In this document: piece after piece, positions 3,435-32,308 of the stretch
Position numbering within the stretch: position 1 is the first letter of the stretch
Layout: every line of letters begins with the position of its first letter
Virus record (IMG/VR): IMGVR_UViG_3300012942_000096
Coordinates: 1 to 34,278 of that record
Length of the DNA: 34,278 nt
From: a virus
Lineage: Duplodnaviria > Caudoviricetes
Reading direction: 5' to 3' (one strand)
Translations under genes and position numbers: made by a program
The notes under the pieces: generated by a model
The model's database searches: none
The model's input: the letters and a program-made list of their open reading frames with translations, nothing else
What the model was told of the DNA's origin: nothing

Positions 3435-3860
3435 GTGAGCAAGCGCAAATATGAACCAGGATCATTTGTTCCATGTTCACCAAAACACAAGCATTGCTCA
3501 CCGGCTCATACTCAGCTCGTGGCGGGCTATCGAGAAGAACGAGCCCGCCAGGAGATTTTGTTAGAAAATGAAACCGGCAATTATGCGGGAGATTTGAAAT
3601 GGCACAAGGAGAACGGCAAGACCATAATCACGTTCAAAACGTGGTTGAAGTCGAACAAAAAGACAGAGGAATATATGATGGTTCGCCCTGTCAAAAATGT
3701 GGCTCCTACGGTTATTGTTATTTCCCCCACGCATGCGGAGGGTATCCAAAATGAGTACAAAAACGAAGAAGATTTTGACGATATTGGCATTGCTTTTGGC
3801 GATGGCTCTTGGCCTGTTTTTGGTCAGCCGCGCACCGGTCGCGATGGCCGATCCGCCTAG
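3435..3860 (+). CDS. Hypothetical protein
   Basis: GTG after AGGTGGAGTCG; 3' end overlaps the next gene by about 110 bp. Confidence 0.65.
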   Translation: MSKRKYEPGSFVPCSPKHKHCSPAHTQLVAGYREERARQEILLENETGNYAGDLKWHKENGKTIITFKTWLKSNKKTEEYMMVRPVKNVAPTVIVISPTHAEGIQNEYKNEEDFDDIGIAFGDGSWPVFGQPRTGRDGRSA

Positions 3861-4295: not shown

Positions 4296-4447
4296 TAATG
4301 GATTATTTTGTTAAGGTAATGATTGTAGTAGTTACAGTTTGGGTTATGGTCGGTGCATAAATGGCCGGGGAAAGCCAGTGTTTTGCTTGCGGATCGTTTT
4401 ATTTCTGTCTAGAACCAAGTTCAAATAGATGCAGAACGAGGATAGAA

Positions 4448-4603
4448 ATGGATAAAGATAGGCCAAAAATTCACGGATTGTCATTTAGGTTCACGCATCC
4501 TACGGCCAGTGTGCTCGACACATTAGAACATGAAATAGAAGTATTTTGTAAGAACCATGGCATTGGGATTGAGTGGCAAGACAAGTACGAAATTCCGACT
4601 TGA
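4448..4603 (+). CDS. Hypothetical protein
   Basis: GAGGA SD before ATG 4448, within track ORF 4361..4603. Confidence 0.55.
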   Translation: MDKDRPKIHGLSFRFTHPTASVLDTLEHEIEVFCKNHGIGIEWQDKYEIPT

Positions 4604-4748: not shown

Positions 4749-4778
4749 CAAAAATTTATGAAATTTCACGCATTTGGC

Positions 4779-4787
4779 TGATATAAT
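4779..4787 (+). promoter_or_regulatory. Extended -10 promoter, leaderless transcript
   Basis: TGA-TATAAT, 6 nt, then ATG 4794; no SD. Confidence 0.65.
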
Positions 4788-4793
4788 TGACCT

Positions 4794-5054
4794 ATGACCC
4801 AACCCAGTATCCCCGAACCGATTGGCGCAGTCCACTACGAGCTACCGCGCGGCGGATTCGCCAGGGAAGACCCCATAGTCTACAATTCGCCGAAACATTC
4901 GGTCGTCCGAAGCTCAATTGTCGTTTACGTAGATAACATCACACAAGCGAATGCTCTCATGAGCCGGTGGGATGAAATCATGAAAGCCGCATCTGACAAG
5001 GTTGATGAAATCTTTTCTCAGTTGCAGCAAGATGTTGAAGTGCCCAGTGGGTAA
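4794..5054 (+). CDS. Hypothetical protein
   Basis: 86 aa ORF after the promoter. Confidence 0.7.
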   Translation: MTQPSIPEPIGAVHYELPRGGFAREDPIVYNSPKHSVVRSSIVVYVDNITQANALMSRWDEIMKAASDKVDEIFSQLQQDVEVPSG

Positions 5055-5346
5055 CGTAATTGGGTTTACGCCGGTACCTGACGATAAACCCCTAGAAGAA
5101 TTCATTAATGAACTCATCGAACGCGATGCTGAATTTTGGAAAGAAAAAATAGAAGAAATAGAAGACGTAATTAGCCAGTTTGAAGAAAATGGTGATCCAT
5201 TTACTTTTGCCTATGCTGGTCTACTCAATCATTTAAATAGCGCAACGCCAGATAGTGTAATAACTCAAAAGGAATTAGTTCATCTTTGTGCTTCTGCTCT
5301 TTGGAACACAATTCTAGAAAGAAAGTATAGGAAGAACGAATCATAA
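5047..5346 (+). CDS. Hypothetical protein (start uncertain)
   Basis: Track ORF 5002..5346; GTG 5047 minimises overlap; TAATG coupling downstream. Confidence 0.6.
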   Translation: MGNVIGFTPVPDDKPLEEFINELIERDAEFWKEKIEEIEDVISQFEENGDPFTFAYAGLLNHLNSATPDSVITQKELVHLCASALWNTILERKYRKNES

Positions 5347-5894
5347 TGGAACACAAGTCAGAGAAGATGGCAAACCTGGCAATCTCTGAGGGTTGGAAAG
5401 CGCAAGTTAAGCCAACCATTCCCGAAAGTAAAAGATACGACGAAATCATTTGGGATTTATTTTGTGTTCGTGGCGAAGAAACGCTTCAAGTTGTTTTTAT
5501 GGGCAATCGCCAGGTCGAAGCAACTCATACGTATATGGGGCGGTCTACACACCCGCCACACAAGGCCGCAGTTATTCGAGTGCTTACCGGCAAGCCTGAC
5601 TTAAAGAAGGTTTCAAAACAAGCACTAGAGAAAGTAATTGAAGTTAGAGATATTCCATTCGATATGGACTCTCCTGCGCTCGATATTCTCAAGTGCGTTA
5701 TCGGAAAAGATATAACTTGGGTGCGCAAGCTTGACGGTGAAGTAATTAACAGTTCGATTCCGCGTATTCAAGACACTAATCCGAAATATCTTAGAGTGCT
5801 CTCGTCAGTTACGACAGGACGACGCATTCTCGAATGGCAGGACCGCGAGGGATTTCACGCGGTGGGCCTTGACCAGATTGTGAATGTTGCATAA
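5346..5894 (+). CDS. Hypothetical protein
   Basis: 182 aa, tightly packed between neighbours. Confidence 0.8.
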   Translation: MEHKSEKMANLAISEGWKAQVKPTIPESKRYDEIIWDLFCVRGEETLQVVFMGNRQVEATHTYMGRSTHPPHKAAVIRVLTGKPDLKKVSKQALEKVIEVRDIPFDMDSPALDILKCVIGKDITWVRKLDGEVINSSIPRIQDTNPKYLRVLSSVTTGRRILEWQDREGFHAVGLDQIVNVA

Positions 5895-7832: not shown

Positions 7833-8215
7833 TAGATGGCATCTCCGTTTTAGATATTATCGTGGATTCATTTAGCCTTCTTCTTTGTATAAGTTTGACA
7901 ATTCTTCTTGTCAGAAGTATTCGCAAACTTGACCAACAAGGCGAATTACTTGGTATCGCGATAAATCTTTTACAAACTGCTGTTCCTTTGATTCGAGAGG
8001 AAACCAAGAGAAAAGTAGCTCATACGGAGGCTTTTGAGCGGCTGGCCGACCCCGAGACGATTGTGGAAGATATGGAGCGGGCCGCAGATATCCTAGAAGC
8101 CCGCCAGGCGAATCGTCTGACAATGCCTCGTGAGGATGCGGGACGACCGGCGCGAGTGTTCCGGCCAAAGTTTTCCGGCAAGCGTGCAAGTTTCTGGAAT
8201 CCACCGCGCCCATAG
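7829..8215 (+). CDS. Membrane-anchored hypothetical protein
   Basis: N-terminal hydrophobic helix; ATGA overlap. Confidence 0.7.
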   Translation: MIDGISVLDIIVDSFSLLLCISLTILLVRSIRKLDQQGELLGIAINLLQTAVPLIREETKRKVAHTEAFERLADPETIVEDMERAADILEARQANRLTMPREDAGRPARVFRPKFSGKRASFWNPPRP

Positions 8216-8217
8216 GC

Positions 8218-8246
8218 TTGCATTCGGTCATGGAATTCGGTAGGTT
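8218..8246 (+). promoter_or_regulatory. SigA-like promoter
   Basis: TTGCAT-N17-TAGGTT. Confidence 0.7.
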
Positions 8247-8311
8247 AATAAGTGAACCGGACAACAGAAGTCGTCCAGCACTAACGAAACAAACCGAGCA
8301 TAGGAGATACC

Positions 8312-8833
8312 ATGACTGACACTCTAGAAGCCCCGGCGAACGCCGCCGACGAGACCGAGACCGAGACCAAGGGTAAGCGCGGTCGCACTCGCGATTTCAC
8401 CAAGTCGAGTGAGTATTACGACAAGTTGGCCGAATTTGCGAATTCCAATTCGGATTGGCAGGCTGCGGGTCTTGGCACCGTGACTCCTCTTCAGATTAAG
8501 GCAGTTCTTGCACTGCGTACCGATTTCGCCAATTTGCCTGAGCAAAAGGCCGCGCGTGAGCGGGCCAAGGCTGAGCGTGAGGCGGAAGCCAAGAAGTACG
8601 AGGGCATGAGCGATGAGCAGATCAAGGCTGCAAAGGCTGCTGCTCGCGCCGAGAAGCAGGCCGCAAAGTTCAAGGCCAAGGCTGATGAGGCAATTGCCAA
8701 GGCTGAGCAGCTTAAGGCTGCCGCGTCTGGCTCTGCCGAGGATTTGGCTGCGGTAGTTGCTTCTGCCCAGGAAAATGCTGAGAGCACCGAAACCGAAAGT
8801 GAGCCCAAGCGGCGAGGGCTGCGCCGCAAGTAA
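8312..8833 (+). CDS. Ala/Lys/Glu-rich coiled-coil protein, possibly nucleic-acid binding
   Basis: SD AGGAG; host-like codons (AAG/GAG/GCC); KRGR motif and basic C-terminus. Confidence 0.85.
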   Translation: MTDTLEAPANAADETETETKGKRGRTRDFTKSSEYYDKLAEFANSNSDWQAAGLGTVTPLQIKAVLALRTDFANLPEQKAARERAKAEREAEAKKYEGMSDEQIKAAKAAARAEKQAAKFKAKADEAIAKAEQLKAAASGSAEDLAAVVASAQENAESTETESEPKRRGLRRK

Positions 8834-8839
8834 ATTCCA

Positions 8840-9001
8840 ATGTCAGACAGATAGCCATTACGCAAACAAAATCTGATAACGGAATGGGACGCAAACGAGT
8901 GAATCCGTATAATCGTTGTATCGCTCGTTTGCGCTCTCAAACCTACAGGGTCGTTCTACTCCGTTCTCCCCTGTAGGTCTGAGGGCAAAAAGCCCAGACA
9001 T
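8840..9001 (+). ncRNA. Candidate three-hairpin small RNA (RNA-1)
   Basis: Stems 8855-62/8880-87, 8890-8902/8921-33, 8934-50/8969-85 with 17-18 nt loops; G-U pairs favour the + strand. Confidence 0.6.
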
Positions 9002-9049
9002 AAAAAAGCAGTCCAAAACAGTTACAATTTCAAATTGGAGTCTCCGACC

Positions 9050-9784
9050 ATGGCAAAATGGTTCGTTCGCGCTGAGCGCGGAAACGCAACTCACGACCAA
9101 CAGTGTTTCGATCAGCGAGAAACTGTTATCAAAATAGGTGGTATTGAAAAACGCCTACCTTTTAAACCGGCATGGGAAGTTGCTGCCGGTGTCAAAAAGT
9201 CCCTTATCGCTCACGGTTGGAGCAACGTTCGCGTTGTGCGAGTCGATCCGGCTCCATCATGCATGACAATAACCAAAACCATCGAGCTTGAACGGGACCG
9301 CGCATTGATGCGGATCACCGTCGAACTGCGCGAGGGGCACCCCACACTGTCGGACGGTTTTTCTGTGACGGCAGACCTATACGAGCCGCGCAAAACGCAA
9401 ACCGGACGGCAGCGGTACGAAATAGGGCGCGATATCGACGCGGGTGGCGCGATGCACGAGAAGATACTGCGATGGGCACCGGAACTAGCGCCGCTCGTGG
9501 CAGTACACCTTGCCGACCCTGATGGCACGCCAATGCACGCGGTTGCGAACGGGTGGTATTTCTACAGCGGCAAAGCGCGGGAGTGGGAAGAGGCACGTAA
9601 CGAGTCCTGGCACAACCGAGAGGGCCTGACCGACCACGAGCGTGCAGCGCGCGCGTTGCATATTCCCCCGGCCGATCTACCCGAGGGGATGGATAAAGAA
9701 CAGTTTGAGGCATTTGCCGAATCGTTGAGGACACGCTGGGCAGAGCAGGCCAGGGCTGCACGCGAGCTGTTAGAAATGCTCTGA
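9050..9784 (+). CDS. Hypothetical protein, probable chimera
   Basis: GGAGTC SD; marked GC increase after about 9290. Confidence 0.75.
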   Translation: MAKWFVRAERGNATHDQQCFDQRETVIKIGGIEKRLPFKPAWEVAAGVKKSLIAHGWSNVRVVRVDPAPSCMTITKTIELERDRALMRITVELREGHPTLSDGFSVTADLYEPRKTQTGRQRYEIGRDIDAGGAMHEKILRWAPELAPLVAVHLADPDGTPMHAVANGWYFYSGKAREWEEARNESWHNREGLTDHERAARALHIPPADLPEGMDKEQFEAFAESLRTRWAEQARAARELLEML

Positions 9785-9787
9785 AGG

Positions 9788-9946
9788 ATGACGCATGAAG
9801 AACAGTATCAAAACTGGCTTCGATCCCAAGAGCTAAAGGGTCGCAGACCTTTGCTCGAAGGTGAAATTAAACCAATTCATAATGATTGCACCTGTATTTA
9901 TAATGACCCAGATTGCATAGTTCATGGGAGCGGTCGTGCCCATTGA
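9788..9946 (+). CDS. Small CxC..CxxH protein (52 aa)
   Basis: Read manually: MTHEEQYQNW...CTCIYNDPDCIVH. Confidence 0.55.
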   Translation: MTHEEQYQNWLRSQELKGRRPLLEGEIKPIHNDCTCIYNDPDCIVHGSGRAH

Positions 9947-10160
9947 GTCAACGACAATTAATACATTTACTTGTTCAATTGTCGATTGTGAAATGACCAA
10001 AAATATAGCCGGAACATTAGAGCAAGCTTTTGACGAAGCTAAAAGTTTGGGGTGGGCATTAGAAGAAGCTATATTTAATAAGGTTTATGATTTTTGTCCA
10101 GAACATGCAAAAGAGCTTAAGCTATGGCTGAGTGGCGATGATTTTAAGGATAATGAATGA
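9936..10160 (+). CDS. Small putative Zn-binding protein
   Basis: CSIVDC...GW...DFCPEH; GGAG before GTG 9936. Confidence 0.7.
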   Translation: MPIESTTINTFTCSIVDCEMTKNIAGTLEQAFDEAKSLGWALEEAIFNKVYDFCPEHAKELKLWLSGDDFKDNE

Positions 10161-11368
10161 TTGAACTTCCATTGTTGCGTAACTCTGAACGCGCATGTTT
10201 TAAGCAATGCCAGGCCAAATGGAATTGGGCGTGGAACCGAGGGCTCACCCTGAAAATGGGCGTAAAAAGCGCGGCCTGGTTTGGCTCAGGAGTGCATTTG
10301 GCCCTTGCTGAGTGGTATACCCCACCTGGCGGGACTAATGGTTTTGCTCGCGGTCGCGATCCAAGAGAAACTTTAGACGAATACTTTAAAAATGAGTTTA
10401 CGACTATTTCGGCTGGTCCCTATTTTGATGAAGTAGCCGAAAAAGAATATTGGGACGCAGCAGAACTAGGCCAAATCATGATGACTGCCTATTTGGCAGA
10501 ATATGGCACAGATGATTCTTGGGAAGTTCTAATGCCTGAGACTCGTTTTGCTATGAAAATAGCTTTCAATAAAAAACAAATTGAGCGCCACGCTCCATAT
10601 GCATTATTTGGTAATGAAAGTGCTTTCATTACGAAAATGGTCGGTACGTTTGATATGCCAATTCGCGATCATACAGACGGGCACGTAAAAGTTGTTGACC
10701 ACAAGACAACCAATAAAAAAGAAAATCCGGTTTGGCTTCAATTTGATGACCAGACAGGTACATATATTGCTGTTTCAACTGCAATGCTACGAAAGCTTGG
10801 TTTTATCTCCGACAAAGAGGAAGTTGTTGGAGCGATTTGGAATTATCTACGCAAGGGTAAGCCTGACAGTCGTCCTCGTGATGCTCTTGGGCGTTGCTGC
10901 AATAAGCCTACTAAAAATCATTATTTGGATCAGTTGTTATCAAAACTTATGGGTTATGATGAATACACCCTTAAGAAGATGAAGGTAGACGAACTTGAGT
11001 CGCTTGCAGAAAAGCATGGAATTGATGTATTCGGAGATGTCTCCGCAAATCAACCGAGCCCATTGTTTTGGAGAATTGATTTGCGACGCAATAAAGCCAA
11101 TCGGTTACGTCAGCTTTCACGCATTGCCGATGACGCTGAACTCATTAATTTGGCTAAAGCGGGCGTTATTCCCATTACCAAAAACCCCGACGAACACTGC
11201 GCCTGGTGTGAATTTAAAGAACTATGCGCTGTAGACGAGGATGGCGGGGATACTGAACAATTCATTAAAGATGTTTTTAAAGTACAGGATATGTATGCAG
11301 ATCATCGCCCTAATGCGATAAACTCAAAATCAAGCGTTAAATCTCAAAAAGAAACCGGGGTAAAATAA
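10157..11368 (+). CDS. Cas4/RecB-like PD-(D/E)XK exonuclease
   Basis: SER..FKQC, FGSGVH, GTFD...VVDHKT, CAWCEFKELC (4-Cys cluster). Confidence 0.9.
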   Translation: MIELPLLRNSERACFKQCQAKWNWAWNRGLTLKMGVKSAAWFGSGVHLALAEWYTPPGGTNGFARGRDPRETLDEYFKNEFTTISAGPYFDEVAEKEYWDAAELGQIMMTAYLAEYGTDDSWEVLMPETRFAMKIAFNKKQIERHAPYALFGNESAFITKMVGTFDMPIRDHTDGHVKVVDHKTTNKKENPVWLQFDDQTGTYIAVSTAMLRKLGFISDKEEVVGAIWNYLRKGKPDSRPRDALGRCCNKPTKNHYLDQLLSKLMGYDEYTLKKMKVDELESLAEKHGIDVFGDVSANQPSPLFWRIDLRRNKANRLRQLSRIADDAELINLAKAGVIPITKNPDEHCAWCEFKELCAVDEDGGDTEQFIKDVFKVQDMYADHRPNAINSKSSVKSQKETGVK

Positions 11369-13801: not shown

Positions 13802-13885
13802 GCTCTCGTGGCGGAATCGGCATACGCGATCGGCTTAAAACCGATTAGTTGAAAAACTATGTGAGTTCAAGTCTCACCGAGAGCA
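13802..13885 (+). tRNA. tRNA-Leu(UAA)
   Basis: Acceptor GCTCTCG/CGAGAGC-A, anticodon arm ATCGG-CTTAAAA-CCGAT, long variable arm, T arm GTGAG-TTCAAGT-CTCAC; CCA not encoded. Confidence 0.95.
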
Positions 13886-13921
13886 CGTCTTAATAAAAAG
13901 AAACCGACAACAGGAGTCGCC

Positions 13922-14943: not shown

Positions 14944-14966
14944 TTTAAGTACCAACGGAGTAGCTT

Positions 14967-15350
14967 GTGCCTAAAAAGCTTATCATTCTAGAACACACTA
15001 ATGGTCACGTCGAAGAAATGCAGGATCACACCGACTGGTTTGTAGAGCAATTTGGTGAAACCGGCGCGGTAGGATATTACGACACAATAGTTAACCGAGC
15101 AATCACGCTCGCTGGCGGGATTAAGAAGATCAAGCGTCTTGCCCGCTGGAACGGAAATCTAATTACGCAAGACTTCGTGCTGTATGGATATAATATGCTT
15201 ACTTTAAAGCGAGAAGTTAAGCATATTGGTCCCGACAAGCTTGCCGAAGTTATTTGTGAATTTGTCAAAGAATTCATTGGTTTCAAACCCAGCGACGATC
15301 TTTGTGAATTATTTGGTAAAGCTGTTTACGGCGAAATGGTGGAAACATGA
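14967..15350 (+). CDS. Hypothetical protein
   Basis: 127 aa; SD GGAG. Confidence 0.75.
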   Translation: MPKKLIILEHTNGHVEEMQDHTDWFVEQFGETGAVGYYDTIVNRAITLAGGIKKIKRLARWNGNLITQDFVLYGYNMLTLKREVKHIGPDKLAEVICEFVKEFIGFKPSDDLCELFGKAVYGEMVET

Positions 15351-25060: not shown

Positions 25061-25494
25061 CCAAAAGATCAAAAAAGCAAAGGATGCTCGAATCTAAAGC
25101 TTTAAAGTATCGTTCTCAATTAAACTATGAACCAGGACGTGTAAGTTTAGATAAAACTAGAAATGAAATTTGGCGTCCGGTTAAAGATTATGAAGACAGT
25201 TATTTAGTTTCAAATAAAGGTAGAACATATTCTTTACCAAGATGGGTTATTCGTAGACCCAATAAAAAAATGTTTCTGCGCGGCGGTGTTATGAGACCTT
25301 TATCAAATAATGTTGATAATGTTCTTCGTGTTCAATTGTATTGTAACGCAACGCCTGTCGTACGTGAGGTTCTGTCATTACAACGAGAAGTATTCTCGGA
25401 CAACGAAATTGACTTCACGATAAGACCGAGCGAGGTCAATATCGGCTGGTCGGTACCCGACGAGATACCGATTGACTTTGGGCCGAATATGTAG
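25057..25494 (+). CDS. NUMOD4-domain protein lacking an HNH domain
   Basis: EIWRPVKDYEDSYLVSNKGR. Confidence 0.75.
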   Translation: MTKRSKKQRMLESKALKYRSQLNYEPGRVSLDKTRNEIWRPVKDYEDSYLVSNKGRTYSLPRWVIRRPNKKMFLRGGVMRPLSNNVDNVLRVQLYCNATPVVREVLSLQREVFSDNEIDFTIRPSEVNIGWSVPDEIPIDFGPNM

Positions 25495-25528
25495 TGGTGC
25501 AGGGGGTTTGACGCGCCGCTATGTTGTG

Positions 25529-25554
25529 CCACAGGGGTTTTCGAGCCCCTGTGG
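25529..25554 (+). other. Strong hairpin / inverted repeat upstream of the primase gene
   Basis: CCACAGGGGTT-TTCG-AGCCCCTGTGG, followed by -10-like TAGTCT (25557-62). Confidence 0.6.
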
Positions 25555-25687
25555 GCTAGTCTGATAGGTCCACCGGCAGCCAATTTTGCCACATTTGCGT
25601 TATGCAAATGGTGATGGAGTCGTGGCTTAAGAGGGTTTTAATTGTGTTTTGAGTCGTCATTATTAGAGAACGGAGTTGTTTTAAACG

Positions 25688-28441
25688 ATGGGTTCTACAG
25701 TCCAACACATGAATCCCTATCGGGAAACGTCACTGAAATACAAAAAATCAGGTTGGCATGGACCGTTACCTATTCCACATAAGCAAAAGAATCCTCCGCC
25801 GACAGGGTATACCGGCCACCGTGCGCCGTATCCAGATGTTAAAAAGATAGAAGAATGGCGCGCGTCATCTAAAAGACAGAATATTTGCATTCGTCTTGCA
25901 GGTGTTGATGACGAACATGAGATTATTGGTATTGACGTTGACCACTATCAAAAAGCTGGTAAAGAAAAACGTGGTGGCGATCAGTTAAAAATTCTTGAAG
26001 CTCAGTACGGAAAACTTCCTGATACGTGGATCAGCTCAGCGAGAACTGATGGTATTTCGGGTATTCGGTACTTCCGTGTACCGCGAGGGATGGCCTTTCG
26101 TGGTCAGGTTGATAAAGATATCGAATGCATTTCTAAAGGATATCGTTTTGCGGTAGTTTGGCCGAGCTTGCATCCTGAAGGTAGTACATATTGGTGGTTT
26201 CCGCCAGGCATTACCCCTGATGAGCTAGGTCGTGGAATTTGGGATGGCTCAGACCTTCCTCAAGCAAAAGATTTACCAATTTTACCTGATGTTTGGCTTG
26301 AATATTTAAGTCAAAACAGGATGCGGGCCGATTTAGATGACCGCATCGACATGGATTCAACCCCAAATCAAATTTATGAGTGGGCTGATGCAACGTTTCA
26401 TGGCGAAGACGAAACCCCGATGTGCAGATTATATCGGGATAAGATCGCAAAGCACAAAAAACTTATTGTTGAAGAAGCTACATTTCACGATAAAATCGTA
26501 AACGGTCATTATAATCTCATTCGTCTTGCTGCTGAAGGCCATGTTGGTTGGAATGAAGCAATCAATGAGTTTGAACAAATTTGTTTAGACAAGGTTCAAT
26601 CTGGTCAAAAAGATCGCGGCCGACAAGAAATTATTGATGAAATTTGGCGCAGTCGTGTTAATGGGTTACGAAAAGTCAAAGCGCAGTGTGACGAGCAAGT
26701 GCGAATTGGCGCAAACCCTGTTTTGGCTCGCTGTGACGAGCCTGGGGGTATCTGCTACACCGGCTCAGATGCCAGCATGCCGACAAACGACGATGGCGAC
26801 GCCCCGCCACCGGATGACCCGCTTGAAGATATACCACGCGGTGCTGCTCTACCAGTTGACGAGTATCGCCTTAATGATGATGGTAATGCAGATCATCTTA
26901 TTGATATGTTTTCATCGTTAGAAACCGGTCCAGCTTTTCGTTATGCAGAAGGTTATGGCTGGATCATTTGGCATAAAGGCAAAGGCGATGAGCAGCCGCA
27001 TTGGCAACTTGATTCAGAAGGAAATCAAGAGATGCGGCGTATGTTTCAACGTATTCGTGATCGTCAAGAAGATTATGTTGAAACTGCTTTACTACCAGCA
27101 TGGAAAGCATTGCAGGCTCAGCTTGATGCTCAGTTAGCCAGCCCTGTTCCTGTTCCTAATGGTATTACTAAAGTTGATGTGCAGCAGGCAAAGGATAAGT
27201 ATTACGAATGGAAAAAATTCAGTGTAGCCAATGGGAACAATCGCAACGCCAACAATGCTATCGAGGCTGCCAAGTCGATAAGCGGGGTTTCTATCTCTGT
27301 GAACAATCTGGACAGAAACCCGTTGTTACTCGGTGTGGCTAACGGTGTTTTAGAGCTTGGTATTGACGATGTGCGACTTCGCGAGGCAAAACCAGATGAT
27401 TTGGTAACTCTTAATACTCATGTTTCCTATGAACAACCAAGCAAGTTAGCGCAATCAACGTGGGAAAGATATTTAGATACATTCTTGCCCGACCTTGAGC
27501 TAAGACGAATCGTACAAATTATTATGGGTCATTGTATTATTGGTGGCAATCCAGAGAAAATAATTATTGTTCTGAAAGGACAATCTGAGACCGGTAAATC
27601 AACAATGTTATCGGCGATTCAATCAGCTCTTGGTGATTATGCTGCACCGGTAAATGAAGGCATGTTTCAATCTGGGCATTTTAATGAAGTACTGGCTAAT
27701 GCTCTCGACAAACGTGTTGTGGTGTGTTCTGAGTTTGATTCATCTATTAAAATGAGTGCTTCGATGGTGAAACGTTTAACAGGAAATGATACTATTTCAG
27801 TTCCTATTAAACATAGTAATGCTGTCAAAGAGGGCGAAGTTCAATTTGTGACAATATTGGCAACGAATGCAACACCACACATTGAGGGTGCCGATAGAGC
27901 GTTGCTTAACAGATTAAAGGTTATTCCATTTGAGACAAAACCACAACATATTGATAGATCGCTGTCTAATGTTGTAATTCAAACGTGCGCACCGGCTGTT
28001 TTATGGTGGTTGATCGAAGGCTATAGACAATATACAACGATTGGATCGTTGCCAACAAGTAAGATTATTGATGATACAACAGAAAGTTTTATGGATGAAC
28101 TTGATCCTGTGGCTATGTTTTTATCTGAAACTACGATCAAACATAGTCATTTCGGTAGAAATATTGAGTGGAAAAATGAGCCAGAATGGTGTGTAAAACG
28201 TGATGATGTCTTTCGTCACTATGAGCAATGGTGCGAAAATAACAAAATTCCTAATCGTGAGCGAATTAGTCCTCACATGCTTACAAGACGCTTGCGTTCA
28301 CTCGGGGTGATCGACAGCGGCAACCGTCTTGTGTCGGTCGGGGGCAACGCTGGCCGGTATTGGTTCGGGATCAAGCTGCGCAAGCTGCGCCGGGGAGGCA
28401 ACGTGTTCCCGATGAGGACCGAATCGGAGGATCAGCAGTGA
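25688..28441 (+). CDS. Bifunctional primase-polymerase fused to a D5/P4-like SF3 helicase
   Basis: K.PP.TG, IIGIDVD, VVWPSLHP; LLGVANGVL, GQSETGKST, VKRLTGND, ATN, NRLKVIPF. Confidence 0.93.
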   Translation: MGSTVQHMNPYRETSLKYKKSGWHGPLPIPHKQKNPPPTGYTGHRAPYPDVKKIEEWRASSKRQNICIRLAGVDDEHEIIGIDVDHYQKAGKEKRGGDQLKILEAQYGKLPDTWISSARTDGISGIRYFRVPRGMAFRGQVDKDIECISKGYRFAVVWPSLHPEGSTYWWFPPGITPDELGRGIWDGSDLPQAKDLPILPDVWLEYLSQNRMRADLDDRIDMDSTPNQIYEWADATFHGEDETPMCRLYRDKIAKHKKLIVEEATFHDKIVNGHYNLIRLAAEGHVGWNEAINEFEQICLDKVQSGQKDRGRQEIIDEIWRSRVNGLRKVKAQCDEQVRIGANPVLARCDEPGGICYTGSDASMPTNDDGDAPPPDDPLEDIPRGAALPVDEYRLNDDGNADHLIDMFSSLETGPAFRYAEGYGWIIWHKGKGDEQPHWQLDSEGNQEMRRMFQRIRDRQEDYVETALLPAWKALQAQLDAQLASPVPVPNGITKVDVQQAKDKYYEWKKFSVANGNNRNANNAIEAAKSISGVSISVNNLDRNPLLLGVANGVLELGIDDVRLREAKPDDLVTLNTHVSYEQPSKLAQSTWERYLDTFLPDLELRRIVQIIMGHCIIGGNPEKIIIVLKGQSETGKSTMLSAIQSALGDYAAPVNEGMFQSGHFNEVLANALDKRVVVCSEFDSSIKMSASMVKRLTGNDTISVPIKHSNAVKEGEVQFVTILATNATPHIEGADRALLNRLKVIPFETKPQHIDRSLSNVVIQTCAPAVLWWLIEGYRQYTTIGSLPTSKIIDDTTESFMDELDPVAMFLSETTIKHSHFGRNIEWKNEPEWCVKRDDVFRHYEQWCENNKIPNRERISPHMLTRRLRSLGVIDSGNRLVSVGGNAGRYWFGIKLRKLRRGGNVFPMRTESEDQQ

Positions 28442-28444
28442 AGA

Positions 28445-28756
28445 TTTACACTTCTGGGCCGAAAAAGTGTAAAAAAAATCAAGAAGTGTAAATAAGTGTA
28501 AATGCCTCTGACCAGCAGTTATATAGCACTTTTTACTAGATTTACACTTATTTACACTTTTTGGTCAAAACTTCTCTATACGCGCGAGGGGAGATGATGG
28601 GTGGTCGTGTCGTGCGTCTCGCGCCTCGCGTTCCTATTACGAAACTTTGCGGGACAAAAGTGTAAATCGACCAAAAGTGTAAAAACCGCAGGTCAGAGCT
28701 GTTTTAGAACGCTAAAAAGTGTAAATGGGCAGGTCAAAGCCTAAAAAAAGTGTAAA
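28445..28756. repeat. Iteron cluster, putative replication origin
   Basis: Ten copies of AAGTGTAAA (7 forward, 3 reverse) plus CTCTGACCAGC / GCAGGTCAGAG. Confidence 0.8.
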
Positions 28757-28774
28757 TGACTGTAGGATGGGGCC

Positions 28775-29124: not shown

Positions 29125-30522
29125 GTGTCGATTCTAGATGATCTTAATCCCCAAGTTGGTCATTCCAACGATCAGGTTAAGATGTGCGCAAGATGTCGTG
29201 AGCAAAAACCTATCGGTTGTTTTAACCGTAATAAAACCACAAAAGATGGTTTGTATGCGTATTGCCGTTCGTGCCAACGTGAAATCCGTAAGGGATATCG
29301 CGAGTCTAAAAAAGATATGTACTTAGTCAGCAATCGTTTTGACGCAATGATTAAGGGTCAACTCGATCTGAATGTTTTAACTATTCAAGAACTTACCGGT
29401 GGTTTCATTGTCTTAGAAGATGGCACAAAACAGGACGTTTCAGTTGCAGGAAAGGCATTTCAAAACAAGTTTGGTCTTGAATTAACTCGTCGTTTAAACA
29501 AGGTTCTACGCAAGGGCTCTAGTCGTGCTCTTGAGGTTATCTATGAAATTATGGATAGCGACCTTGTTGAACCAGCGGACAGATTCAAAGCTGCCCAATG
29601 GTGGACCGAAAGAGTTATGGGCAAAACTCCTGATATCTTGCATATTGGAACGGAGACGCAACCTCATGAATCTATTTTTGAAACTCTTGTCGGCGGTTCT
29701 CGTGAGGATCATCGAGCGAAGCAACTTGGCCAAGCGATTGATGCAGAAGTTGTCGATATTCAAGACGCAAATGTGGTTGAAGACGAAACCGGTTCGCGCA
29801 GTGATAACGAATCCGATCGTTTCGTGGGCGAACAAGTATTGCAACGAAGCGGGCAAGACGTGGATAGCGAAGCATTCGATGGGATGGATGCAGATAATCG
29901 AACAGCCAACGAAACCGATTCGGATACCAGGAACGGATTACGCGGTGGCAGACGTGAAGATCACCGAATTCGTGTCGGAACCGATGTCGTCCAAAACGTT
30001 GGAGGATTGGCAGGAAATCGAACGACAGATAATCGAGCAGAATCTTCCCATTCCGACGTTGGGAGAAACGTTGGAACAGTTTTCGGAGAGGATGAAGCAA
30101 CGGGGTCTGCTCAACAGCAAGGCATCTCTGTACGAGAGCCAATCAATGATGGAAATGCAGGAAAATCAAGCCAAGCAGAACAAGCTGCGAATGCAATCGT
30201 ACTAAAACAACAAGAGAAAAAGGCTCTCCGCAAGCGTTTAAATGATGCAAAAAAGCGCCGTTTTGCTGCGAGAGCGGTCGGGGCCACATCTCTGGACGCA
30301 GCACCGTGGTTGATCGACTGGCGGGTCACTGAGGATGGGCTACGGGCGTGTCTGGTACCGCCGAGCGCGCAAACACCGGCTAAGCTGTCGGTGATCGCAG
30401 CGAATGCACAAGCAACTGATGATGAACAGTTCGTTGCAACGCAAAGAGCTAATATTTTGCAAATGAAAGCTCAAAAGTTGCAAGAAAAAGCACAAAAAGC
30501 GTTAGGAAAAGCAAATGCTTGA
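29125..30522 (+). CDS. Terminase small subunit-like protein with N-terminal Zn finger
   Basis: VEPADRFKAAQWWTERVMGKTP and IDAEVVD motifs reminiscent of actinophage TerS; upstream of TerL. Confidence 0.55.
   Translation: MSILDDLNPQVGHSNDQVKMCARCREQKPIGCFNRNKTTKDGLYAYCRSCQREIRKGYRESKKDMYLVSNRFDAMIKGQLDLNVLTIQELTGGFIVLEDGTKQDVSVAGKAFQNKFGLELTRRLNKVLRKGSSRALEVIYEIMDSDLVEPADRFKAAQWWTERVMGKTPDILHIGTETQPHESIFETLVGGSREDHRAKQLGQAIDAEVVDIQDANVVEDETGSRSDNESDRFVGEQVLQRSGQDVDSEAFDGMDADNRTANETDSDTRNGLRGGRREDHRIRVGTDVVQNVGGLAGNRTTDNRAESSHSDVGRNVGTVFGEDEATGSAQQQGISVREPINDGNAGKSSQAEQAANAIVLKQQEKKALRKRLNDAKKRRFAARAVGATSLDAAPWLIDWRVTEDGLRACLVPPSAQTPAKLSVIAANAQATDDEQFVATQRANILQMKAQKLQEKAQKALGKANA
29771..30205 (+). 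CDS. Nested out-of-frame ORF (144 aa) inside the TerS-like gene
   Basis: MWLKTKPVR...; protein-like composition where the TerS frame looks disordered. Confidence 0.45.
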   Translation: MWLKTKPVRAVITNPIVSWANKYCNEAGKTWIAKHSMGWMQIIEQPTKPIRIPGTDYAVADVKITEFVSEPMSSKTLEDWQEIERQIIEQNLPIPTLGETLEQFSERMKQRGLLNSKASLYESQSMMEMQENQAKQNKLRMQSY

Positions 30523-30769: not shown

Positions 30770-31027
30770 ATGGCTAAGCGCATGAAGAAGATGTACGACG
30801 GTCGCAATGTTGCGACTCGTCCGATTCCGGTGATTGTGGATGAATCTGAACGTCGTGCAATTGCAGCAGCAGCGAGCGATTCCAAGCCTTTGGGCGATGT
30901 TGTGCAAATGCCTTCTGGGCCGCGTGCCAAGGCTGCTGGATCGGGCGTTTTGGGCAAGCCTGTTCGTGGCGGTGCTCGCATTAAGGCCGGTAACTATAAC
31001 CCAATTGGCGTTGACGGCAACCGCTAA
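30770..31027 (+). CDS. Hypothetical protein
   Basis: SD AGGAG. Confidence 0.75.
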   Translation: MAKRMKKMYDGRNVATRPIPVIVDESERRAIAAAASDSKPLGDVVQMPSGPRAKAAGSGVLGKPVRGGARIKAGNYNPIGVDGNR

Positions 31028-31065
31028 ATAAAAATTTAAATAGAGTTGTTATGATGATCTCGGTG
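31016..31065 (+). repeat. 50-bp perfect direct repeat, copy 1 (contains a promoter)
   Basis: GGCAACCGCTAAATAAAAATTTAAATAGAGTTGTTATGATGATCTCGGTG. Confidence 0.97.
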
Positions 31066-31494: not shown

Positions 31495-31544
31495 GGCAAC
31501 CGCTAAATAAAAATTTAAATAGAGTTGTTATGATGATCTCGGTG
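31495..31544 (+). repeat. 50-bp perfect direct repeat, copy 2 (extended -10 TGT-TATGAT at 31526-34)
   Basis: Identical to 31016-31065. Confidence 0.97.
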
Positions 31545-31819: not shown

Positions 31820-31971
31820 TGCCTCGGCATATGTGTCCTCGTTGTAAGCAACCGTCAAACATGATTTGGGATGGCAAAAAGTGGATTTGCCCTAATCCTG
31901 ATTGCAGCTATAAAGGAGTCGATCAACTTGCCCAGCATGAACCAGATAATCAGGGGCAACCGAATGCCTAA
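31819..31971 (+). CDS. Small Zn-ribbon protein (50 aa)
   Basis: Read manually: CPRC...WICPNPDC; TAATG coupling. Confidence 0.65.
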   Translation: MPRHMCPRCKQPSNMIWDGKKWICPNPDCSYKGVDQLAQHEPDNQGQPNA

Positions 31972-32308
31972 AATCGACGGTATCGACAAAGCGGATATGT
32001 TTTACGATGAAACTCCGCGTGTTCGCTTTGAATATCAGATGAAAGTGAACTGCTATCAAGCACCTTTCGTTTTTCATTACTCAACTGTGCTTGATGGCGT
32101 TGATGATGATATGAAAATCAAGACGCTACATACCGAAGCACAAGTTGGAATGTATAACGCATTGCAGCGCATTTGGCAAAATAATGAAGATGCTGAATTC
32201 GTCGCGTGGCGTTGTTATGACGATAAAGGCGCATTGCTCGAAGAATCCGATGTGCTCTCGATTTATGTCAAAGATACAGGCGAGGTTCGCGCAATTACGC
32301 CCGCATGA
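31964..32308 (+). CDS. Hypothetical protein
   Basis: Track ORF 31871..32308; ATG 31964 preferred. Confidence 0.7.
   Translation: MPKIDGIDKADMFYDETPRVRFEYQMKVNCYQAPFVFHYSTVLDGVDDDMKIKTLHTEAQVGMYNALQRIWQNNEDAEFVAWRCYDDKGALLEESDVLSIYVKDTGEVRAITPA

Follow-up and report, generated by a model that had tools for sequence, protein, structure and literature searches.

The window analysed here is the whole of a 34,278-base virus record and carries the non-structural arm of a phage. Its plus-strand genes include a DUF932 gene, a helicase, a Cas4-like exonuclease, Sak4, DnaE and a primase-polymerase, and the gene order agrees with that of Konstantine, Predator, Barnyard and Patience. The gene at 8312-8833 matches 21 records among 50,697 phage records, all mycobacteriophages of what we take to be clusters H and U only. 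Judged from its sequence, the window comes from a phage akin to those of mycobacteriophage clusters H/U, and the host of this phage would be an actinobacterium. An Rfam search of the window returned a tRNA-Leu and a spurious mir-279 score and nothing else; the tRNA-Leu(TAA) lies at 13802-13886, a position that in Patience holds a tRNA-Gln. Right after the primase gene, direct and inverted repeats of the AAGTGTAAAT type form an intergenic array (28443-28770) that includes a 24-bp near-perfect inverted repeat and is a candidate replication origin or packaging region. A perfect 50-nt direct repeat occurs at 31016-31065 and 31495-31544, 479 nt apart.

Carrier gene and tandem hairpins

The plus-strand gene at 8312-8833, termed here the carrier gene, belongs to phrog_12020 and encodes a helical protein of 173 aa with homologues in Konstantine (gp68), Predator (gp65), Barnyard (gp70) and Patience (gp79), the last of which is reported as detected in particles (PMC4324244). 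The GC3 of the gene, 0.63 against 0.34-0.39 for four replication genes, suggests high expression. The model of the protein (pLDDT 79.8) gave no informative fold match, and a chaperone role was dropped for want of support, as there was no Foldseek match and the best Z, 6.4, fell on a coiled coil. A SigA-type promoter is predicted upstream on the plus strand at 8218-8246 (TTGCAT, 17 nt, TAGGTT); it was not called by a consensus scan and the pattern is unmatched in Barnyard, and the same 17-nt-spaced pattern precedes the homologous gene in Konstantine, Predator and Patience. The 5' leader holds a conserved plus-strand hairpin (GGAC...GTCC, 8257-8276), which is present as a single copy in the window and recurs in the leaders of most relatives.

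Behind the carrier gene, the long stem of hairpin B (8890-8933, plus strand) directly abuts hairpin C (8934-8985, plus strand). In hairpin C, a lower stem (8934-8939/8980-8985) and a core 10-bp stem (8941-8950/8969-8978) close an open pyrimidine loop at 8951-8968, TCGTTCTACTCCGTTCTC; both hairpin and loop lie exactly where the preliminary description had placed them. The region 8834-9050 folds with a z-score of -5.7 (0 of 200 shuffles were as good), and opening the loop costs 1.6 kcal/mol in the window. A free-standing gene of three hairpins is less likely, as no promoter-like site was found between 8833 and 8934, and relatives do not retain the first hairpin (8834-8889). Given the conserved promoter pattern, the location behind the carrier gene and the high GC3 of that gene, the hairpin RNA is most likely the 3' end, or 3' UTR, of the transcript of gene 8312-8833. 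An ORF running across the hairpin (8916-9137) was rejected as a gene because relatives do not share it. Pairing between the loop and its own 5' leader was likewise set aside as a conserved function; it reaches 7 nt in Konstantine and Predator and is not conserved in the window or in Barnyard. A further stem of 13 bp, closing a pyrimidine-rich loop of 23 nt, was noted at 32050-32100, inside ORF 31871-32308.

Hairpin B followed by hairpin C was found behind the homologous gene in 10 of 14 loci of relatives; the loci with hairpin C are the window, Konstantine, Predator, Barnyard, DrLupo, L013, G003 (L015), L031, G001 (L018) and L010, and in L010 the pair (4760-4850) is displaced behind an inserted ORF. 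Patience, L011 and G002 lack hairpin C, and their hairpin B ends in a U-tract; nor was hairpin C found in L038 or more distant loci. The loop-closing stem measures 10 bp in 9 of the 10 homologues. In the 10-sequence alignment, 95.5% of 157 cells are paired and 14 of 16 pairs have changed on both sides in a compensatory manner; the covariation score, for a structure read from the same 10 sequences, is 0.765, compared with 0.294 after shuffling (0 of 500) and at most 0.142 with slid partners. A UCCGUU core, which forms the predicted seed in the 3' half of the loop, is kept in the loop of 8 of the 10 homologues. The element recurs at 100% identity in 11 records under 8 H1 phage names.

Searches for more members yielded little. 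A loop pattern scan gave 113 loci, from which model R1 retained only the known copy in G003; a metagenome scan, with 19 of 64 parts covered, returned only the window's own record, and a genome scan and two further viral scans found no additional members. Four weak loci from a single-sequence scan were unrelated and were dropped. An Rfam search on the hairpins of seven related loci gave no match. The one run checked for expression gave seven short relative-like contigs, none over 8808-9479, and carries no weight either way.

Loop complements at translation starts

To locate candidate targets, both strands of the window were searched exhaustively for complements of the loop plus two stem bases. 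Complements of at least 8 nt number seven on the plus strand and two, of 8 nt each, on the minus strand. The preliminary description had proposed that the loop is antisense to the ribosome-binding sites of several genes and that its longest matches stand at starts; the four complements that it gave in full are all correct and all precede starts. The longest, 11 nt at 25666-25676, lies at -22 to -12 of the primase-polymerase gene (25688-28441) and forms the best duplex of 56 window starts (-20.8 kcal/mol). Further predicted targets on the plus strand are the gene at 14967-15350, directly before DnaE (10 nt at 14954-14963, -13 to -4), the phrog_5546 gene at 1572-1781 (9 nt at 1555-1563, -17 to -9) and the DUF732 gene at 2574-2954 (site 2561-2570 with a 9-nt match at 2561-2569), the last with the second-best duplex of the 56 starts. 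The 7-mer AGAACGA is present at 4433 and 5333 as had been noted, but of its 10 copies only three, those at 5333, 4433 and 2564, stand at starts, which makes it weak as evidence. Accordingly, the phrog_5307 gene at 5346-5894 (7 nt at 5333-5339, plus strand, pairing with the 5' half of the loop) is listed as a weak predicted target, and the site at 4433-4439 (7 nt, plus strand), whose start at 4448 was chosen by hand, as a weak and uncertain one. Within genes we found 9 nt at 3608-3616, a match also anticipated in the preliminary description, and 8 nt each at 29648 and 17727. The six target sites are only mildly structured, with opening costs of 1.0-5.3 kcal/mol.

The preliminary description had suggested a test for positional enrichment. 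Of loop-only complements of at least 9 nt, 3 of 3 end within -14 to +2 of a start (p 3e-5), such start windows covering 2.9% of the window sequence; the 56 starts were picked by hand, but for each of the three top targets the start used is the first start codon that its ORF offers. In view of the likeness of the loop to an anti-SD, SD-aware nulls were used, for which decoys were taken from genuine start regions in two hairpin-less relatives. Three genes at 9 nt were reached by 2 of 3000 shuffled loops, 0 of 2366 SD-aware decoys and 6 of 392 decoys from starts of the same genome. At the 8-nt threshold the signal is weaker (3 of 5 at starts; shuffled loops 103 of 3000, SD-aware decoys 32 of 2366).

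Several features were noted beside these sites. The primase leader (25494-25690) holds four successive hairpins just before the 11-nt site. The product of gene 1572-1781 resembles Pfam Phage_ProQ_C_like below the cut-off (E 1e-4); an RNA-binding role, if true, would add feedback. Between a terminator at about 1297-1318 and this same gene, a 33-nt imperfect direct repeat with strong folding lies at 1382-1471.

In Konstantine, GAAACGGAC or a close form of it precedes genes 45, 46, 47, 49, 53, 54, 57, 58, 64, 66, 78 and 79. With the phage's own loop, 11 of 14 matches of at least 9 nt are at deposited starts, all of non-structural genes, although the sites of genes 46, 49 and 51 are not independent, owing to duplicated leaders; shuffled loops (0 of 3000) and SD-aware decoys (0 of 2912) did not reach this number. 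The tag precedes 13 of the 51 genes from 45 to 95 compared to none of the 44 genes from 1 to 44 (p 1.5e-4). At the same length, own-loop matches are at starts in 6 of 11 cases in the right 40 kb of Predator (SD-aware decoys 4 of 2730), in 3 of 6 in Barnyard, or 4 of 6 with tolerant starts (SD-aware decoys 21 of 1820), in 1 of 2 in the 20 kb of G003, and in the right 40 kb of DrLupo in 0 of 3 with annotated starts, or 2 of 3 when starts are called tolerantly; the numbers are small for the window and the H2 phages. Two of the 10 homologues are without own targets: G001, whose loop is C-rich, has one start site among 29 matches at 8 nt and none among 6 at 9 nt, and L010, whose loop is a plain anti-SD, has none among 3 on a contig of 11.9 kb. 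In G001 (L018:10500-10600) both hairpins carry pyrimidine loops, and the loop of hairpin B has an 8-nt complement before the DUF932 gene. As for controls that lack hairpin C, H-type loops show no 9-nt enrichment in G002, and Patience shows none except with the Predator loop (2 of 5).

The phrog_5307 gene has sites of 9-11 nt in Konstantine, Predator, Barnyard and G003, one of 7 nt in the window and none in DrLupo; G003 has its best match, of 12 nt, 2 nt ahead of this gene. The target set is labile, since the DUF932 gene of the window is without a site (3 nt) and the primase is a clear target in the window only.

Joint change of loop and target

Loops and sites differ among the phages in a matched fashion. 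The window loop is one U shorter than the H-type loops, and the window sites read GAGAACGG. When five H-type loops were tried in the window, 0/1, 0/3, 0/1, 1/4 and 0/1 of their matches were start sites, and the window loop in Konstantine gave 0/1 at 9 nt and 3/12 at 8 nt. Immediately before UCCGUU, the loop carries C in the window, G in Konstantine, Predator and G003, U in Barnyard and A in DrLupo. On the target side, start-proximal AACGGA is followed by G in 2 of 4 cases in the window, by C in 12 of 14 in Konstantine (versus 8 of 27 elsewhere), 7 of 9 in Predator and 1 of 2 in G003, by A in 3 of 5 in Barnyard and by T in 2 of 4 in DrLupo, which gives four different base pairs at one loop-target position. 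The best Barnyard match (12 nt, against 8-10 with other loops) lies 4 nt before the DUF932 gene, and that of DrLupo (14 nt, against 8-10) lies 2 nt before the same gene; both starts were reassigned downstream of the deposited ones, in line with the N-termini of orthologues. The proposed complementarity of the loop to the start regions of several genes thus exceeds chance, and the relatives add covariation of loop and target. Deposited starts also seem too far upstream for Barnyard gene 56 and DrLupo genes 57, 72, 73 and 85 (L023, L025), and DrLupo 73, which overlaps the hairpin RNA, is probably not a gene.

The tag might instead be a protein site, recognised by an RNA-binding repressor or used as a DNA operator, with the hairpin acting as a decoy that displays the tag on minus-strand RNA or extruded DNA. 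The tag has an ANGGA-like core, and the minus strand folds as stably or more so in 7 of the 10 homologues, its folding energy being favoured there. CsrB/RsmY-type sponges display protein-binding tags as decoys in several GGA-bearing hairpin loops on the transcribed strand; the element described here has one loop, with GGA only on the minus strand. We consider a decoy highly improbable, since G-U pairs fit the plus strand (8 compared with 3 C-A; 4 compared with 0 in the core stem), no minus-strand promoter-like site was found in 8000-10500, and the plus strand carries every gene as well as the conserved promoter. In addition, four base pairs at one position arise more easily by pairing than by a drift in protein specificity.

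The window loop is a one-base variant of the 16S anti-SD, being identical at 8 of 9 positions to the 16S rRNA 3' tail of actinobacterial genomes; the loop of L010 is identical at 9 of 9, and its plain anti-SD sequence is possibly an ancestral state or a host-directed variant. This likeness raises the question of whether the RNA is a general anti-SD RNA directed at the host or at all SD-led mRNAs, or whether the tandem hairpins are a terminator and 3'-end protector, the matches at phage starts being a by-product. The lack of own targets in G001 and L010, the retention of UCCGUUUC in H2 phages with few tagged genes, and the ending of the gene by hairpin B alone with its U-tract in Patience, L011 and G002 all fit such a role. 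No intrinsic terminator (a short-loop GC stem with a U-tract) was called in 8000-10500, and hairpin C combines a loop of 18 nt with an A-rich tail; it could still be a mycobacterial terminator of the kind that lacks a U-tract. A conserved 15-25-nt loop on a 10-bp stem would be unneeded in a terminator. A general anti-SD function is countered by the SD-aware decoys, which do not reproduce the enrichment, and by the loop-target covariation at bases outside the SD. Moreover, the loop has no advantage in binding over the 16S tail at canonical-SD genes (-7.5 vs. -8.6 kcal/mol in the window, -8.7 vs. -10.0 kcal/mol in Konstantine). On this evidence we doubt that either general role accounts for the element.

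Among tagged genes, which were chosen by the tag, the loop binds about twice as strongly as the tail (-15 vs. -7 kcal/mol). The spacing from site to start ranges from -1 to 15 nt: the tag either serves as the SD, at a distance of 6-9 nt, or occupies the space that separates a canonical SD from the start codon (-1 to 3 nt), several genes keep a separate canonical SD, and in DnaE of Barnyard and DrLupo the site takes in the first start-codon bases. We propose, with a probability of a little under 60%, that the RNA acts in trans from a 3' UTR as an antisense RNA, covering a private RBS tag and so repressing a set of non-structural genes. The proposal builds on features established by comparison of the sequences, namely a conserved covarying structure, complementarity to starts, covariation of loop and target, and the restriction to non-structural genes in Konstantine. 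A transcript with hairpins B and C would be made from the putative SigA-type promoter at 8218-8246 as the 3' UTR of the carrier message, from which the RNA would perhaps be released as a stable fragment. The loop would pair in trans with the private Shine-Dalgarno variant on the phage's own mRNAs, where its extra G would pair with the C of the tag (AACGGA), and canonical SD genes would be spared. Such a duplex may form without a chaperone, as for 6C/B11, and would block ribosome entry, so that the target set would be damped as the carrier transcript accumulates. The RNA could thus act as an early-to-late timer or as a feedback damper. Pairing of a loop with a ribosome-binding site, with compensatory rescue, has been reported for B11 (PMC10470900).

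Pairing at the same sites could also raise expression, if it stabilised the mRNA, opened an inhibitory fold or let the loop act in place of the 16S anti-SD. Pairing of tagged starts with the 16S tail is weak (means of -7.2 to -8.2 kcal/mol, against -8.5 to -10.0 kcal/mol for canonical-SD genes), sites without a separate SD are mostly 6-9 nt from the start, and a translation-enhancing phage sRNA is known in LPR1/PreS (10.1101/2024.10.31.621285). We judge activation unlikely, because the target regions, at 1.0-5.3 kcal/mol, offer little structure to open, and sites at -1 to 3 nt behind a canonical SD, or with start-codon bases, would be blocked. Repression in trans is preferred since pairing at such sites would block 30S entry and a stand-in anti-SD would need a fixed spacing. 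If repression is correct, the phage would possess an RNA-only regulon switch, in a genome in whose visible part no repressor was found, and anti-SD and SD would have been edited together into a private address. The proposal is testable at once, because the element is unchanged in cultured M. smegmatis phages (the H1 names, and also Predator, Barnyard and DrLupo).

Comparison with known regulatory RNAs and start-associated motifs

No description of this RNA or its tag was found in the open-access literature searched. Six supplement files of a phage structured-RNA catalogue (PMC10690425) gave no match to the loop terms, and the structure may be present, unnamed, in files 1, 2 and 4 of that catalogue.

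Antisense RNAs of the P1 C4 and P4 CI type act by short base-pairing on mRNA within one operon of a temperate phage. The first is represented in Rfam as c4 (RF01695; PMC2864571), and the c4 model had no match in the window. The RNA described here resembles C4/CI and the lambda RNA LPR1/PreS (10.1101/2024.10.31.621285) as a phage-encoded structured RNA with short mRNA pairing; LPR1 is described as acting on host genes with Hfq, whereas this RNA would address scattered genes of its own lytic-type phage through one shared tag.

The RNA also resembles the 6C/B11 sRNA of Actinobacteria, for which adjacent hairpins with single-stranded pyrimidine loops are reported to face the ribosome-binding regions of many mRNAs (PMC6486639, PMC10470900); the window, too, has two adjacent hairpins and an accessible loop complementary to RBS regions. 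6C/B11 is reported to need no Hfq, and its repression was demonstrated by compensatory mutation (PMC6486639, PMC10470900). However, 6C/B11 is described as a conserved host gene whose C-run loops bind G-tracts, with six conserved cytosines in its stem-loops (PMC6486639), while the phage RNA is phage-borne, probably lies in a 3' UTR and would read a private A-rich tag, and the window loop has at most two consecutive C; the loops of G001 are C-rich, with runs of four C. The 6C Rfam model had no match in the window (E up to 1) or in the seven related loci (E up to 10). The phage RNA would work like 6C/B11 but is not a member of that family.

On the target side, the tag resembles the start-associated sequence (SAS) of cluster K mycobacteriophages (PMC3203893, PMC11373665) and of cluster EF Microbacterium phages (PMC7302621), reported as a one-orientation motif at the RBS position of non-structural genes. 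The same arrangement, a repeated asymmetric motif in one orientation before non-structural starts, is found in Konstantine, and in the window at 3-4 of the 56 starts. The SAS is said in these reports to be conserved beyond the needs of 16S pairing, with a partner RNA or protein left open (PMC3203893, PMC11373665, PMC7302621). The H-type tag differs from it in being shorter (7-11 nt), in sequence, in its variable spacing and in having a covarying complementary loop; the listed upstream regions of the phages studied here show GAAACGGAC or GAGAACGGA, not the 13-bp cluster K consensus. The cluster K type also has inverted repeats linked to it on the upstream side (ESAS); in Konstantine, duplicated leaders were seen at genes 46, 49 and 51.

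A single reversed SAS copy was reported in four K1 phages (Pope et al., PMC3203893). In the right 34.6 kb of Adephagia we found 16 forward copies and one reversed copy, and the latter makes up the second loop of a tandem hairpin pair (z -6.3; L078:33600-33730, record about 58600-58730) in the space that separates genes 92 and 93, the apparent starting point of late transcription (PMC11373665). This stretch matches 181 phage records, 135 of them over at least 80%, and the tandem hairpin is conserved among K1 phages. The anti-SAS loop sequence is present in three of seven cluster K phages examined, Adephagia, Validus and Enkosi; the Validus region folds otherwise in a wider window, and in Hammy the loop is of a plain, anti-SD-like type. 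Some of the 'hypothetical' calls made over the cluster K hairpins look spurious. A universal SAS/anti-SAS rule was rejected, as Hurricane, Omnicron and TM4 have 15, 5 and 8 SAS copies and no anti-SAS in the right 20 kb, and the whole genome of AnnaSerena has 10 SAS copies and no anti-SAS loop. Model R1 does not match the cluster K hairpins, and we treat the anti-SAS hairpin as a putative analogue and a lead, not as a general rule. A wider proposal would be that a surrogate anti-SD, one base away from the 16S tail, recognises a private SD and gates, and possibly licenses, translation of a phage regulon, that this design arose more than once and explains the actinophage SAS, and that the K1 anti-SAS hairpin, placed at the head of the late transcript, is an early-to-late switch; in this full form we hold it to be improbable.

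If the main reading is correct, a 10-bp stem with an open loop would offer a retargetable, compact and chaperone-free repressor scaffold for mycobacterial genetics. It would also offer a concrete partner for the SAS, whose role was left open in 2011 (PMC3203893) and was described as ill-defined in 2024 (PMC11373665). To the known systems, the present case contributes cultured, tractable phages and loop-target covariation at the level of single bases.
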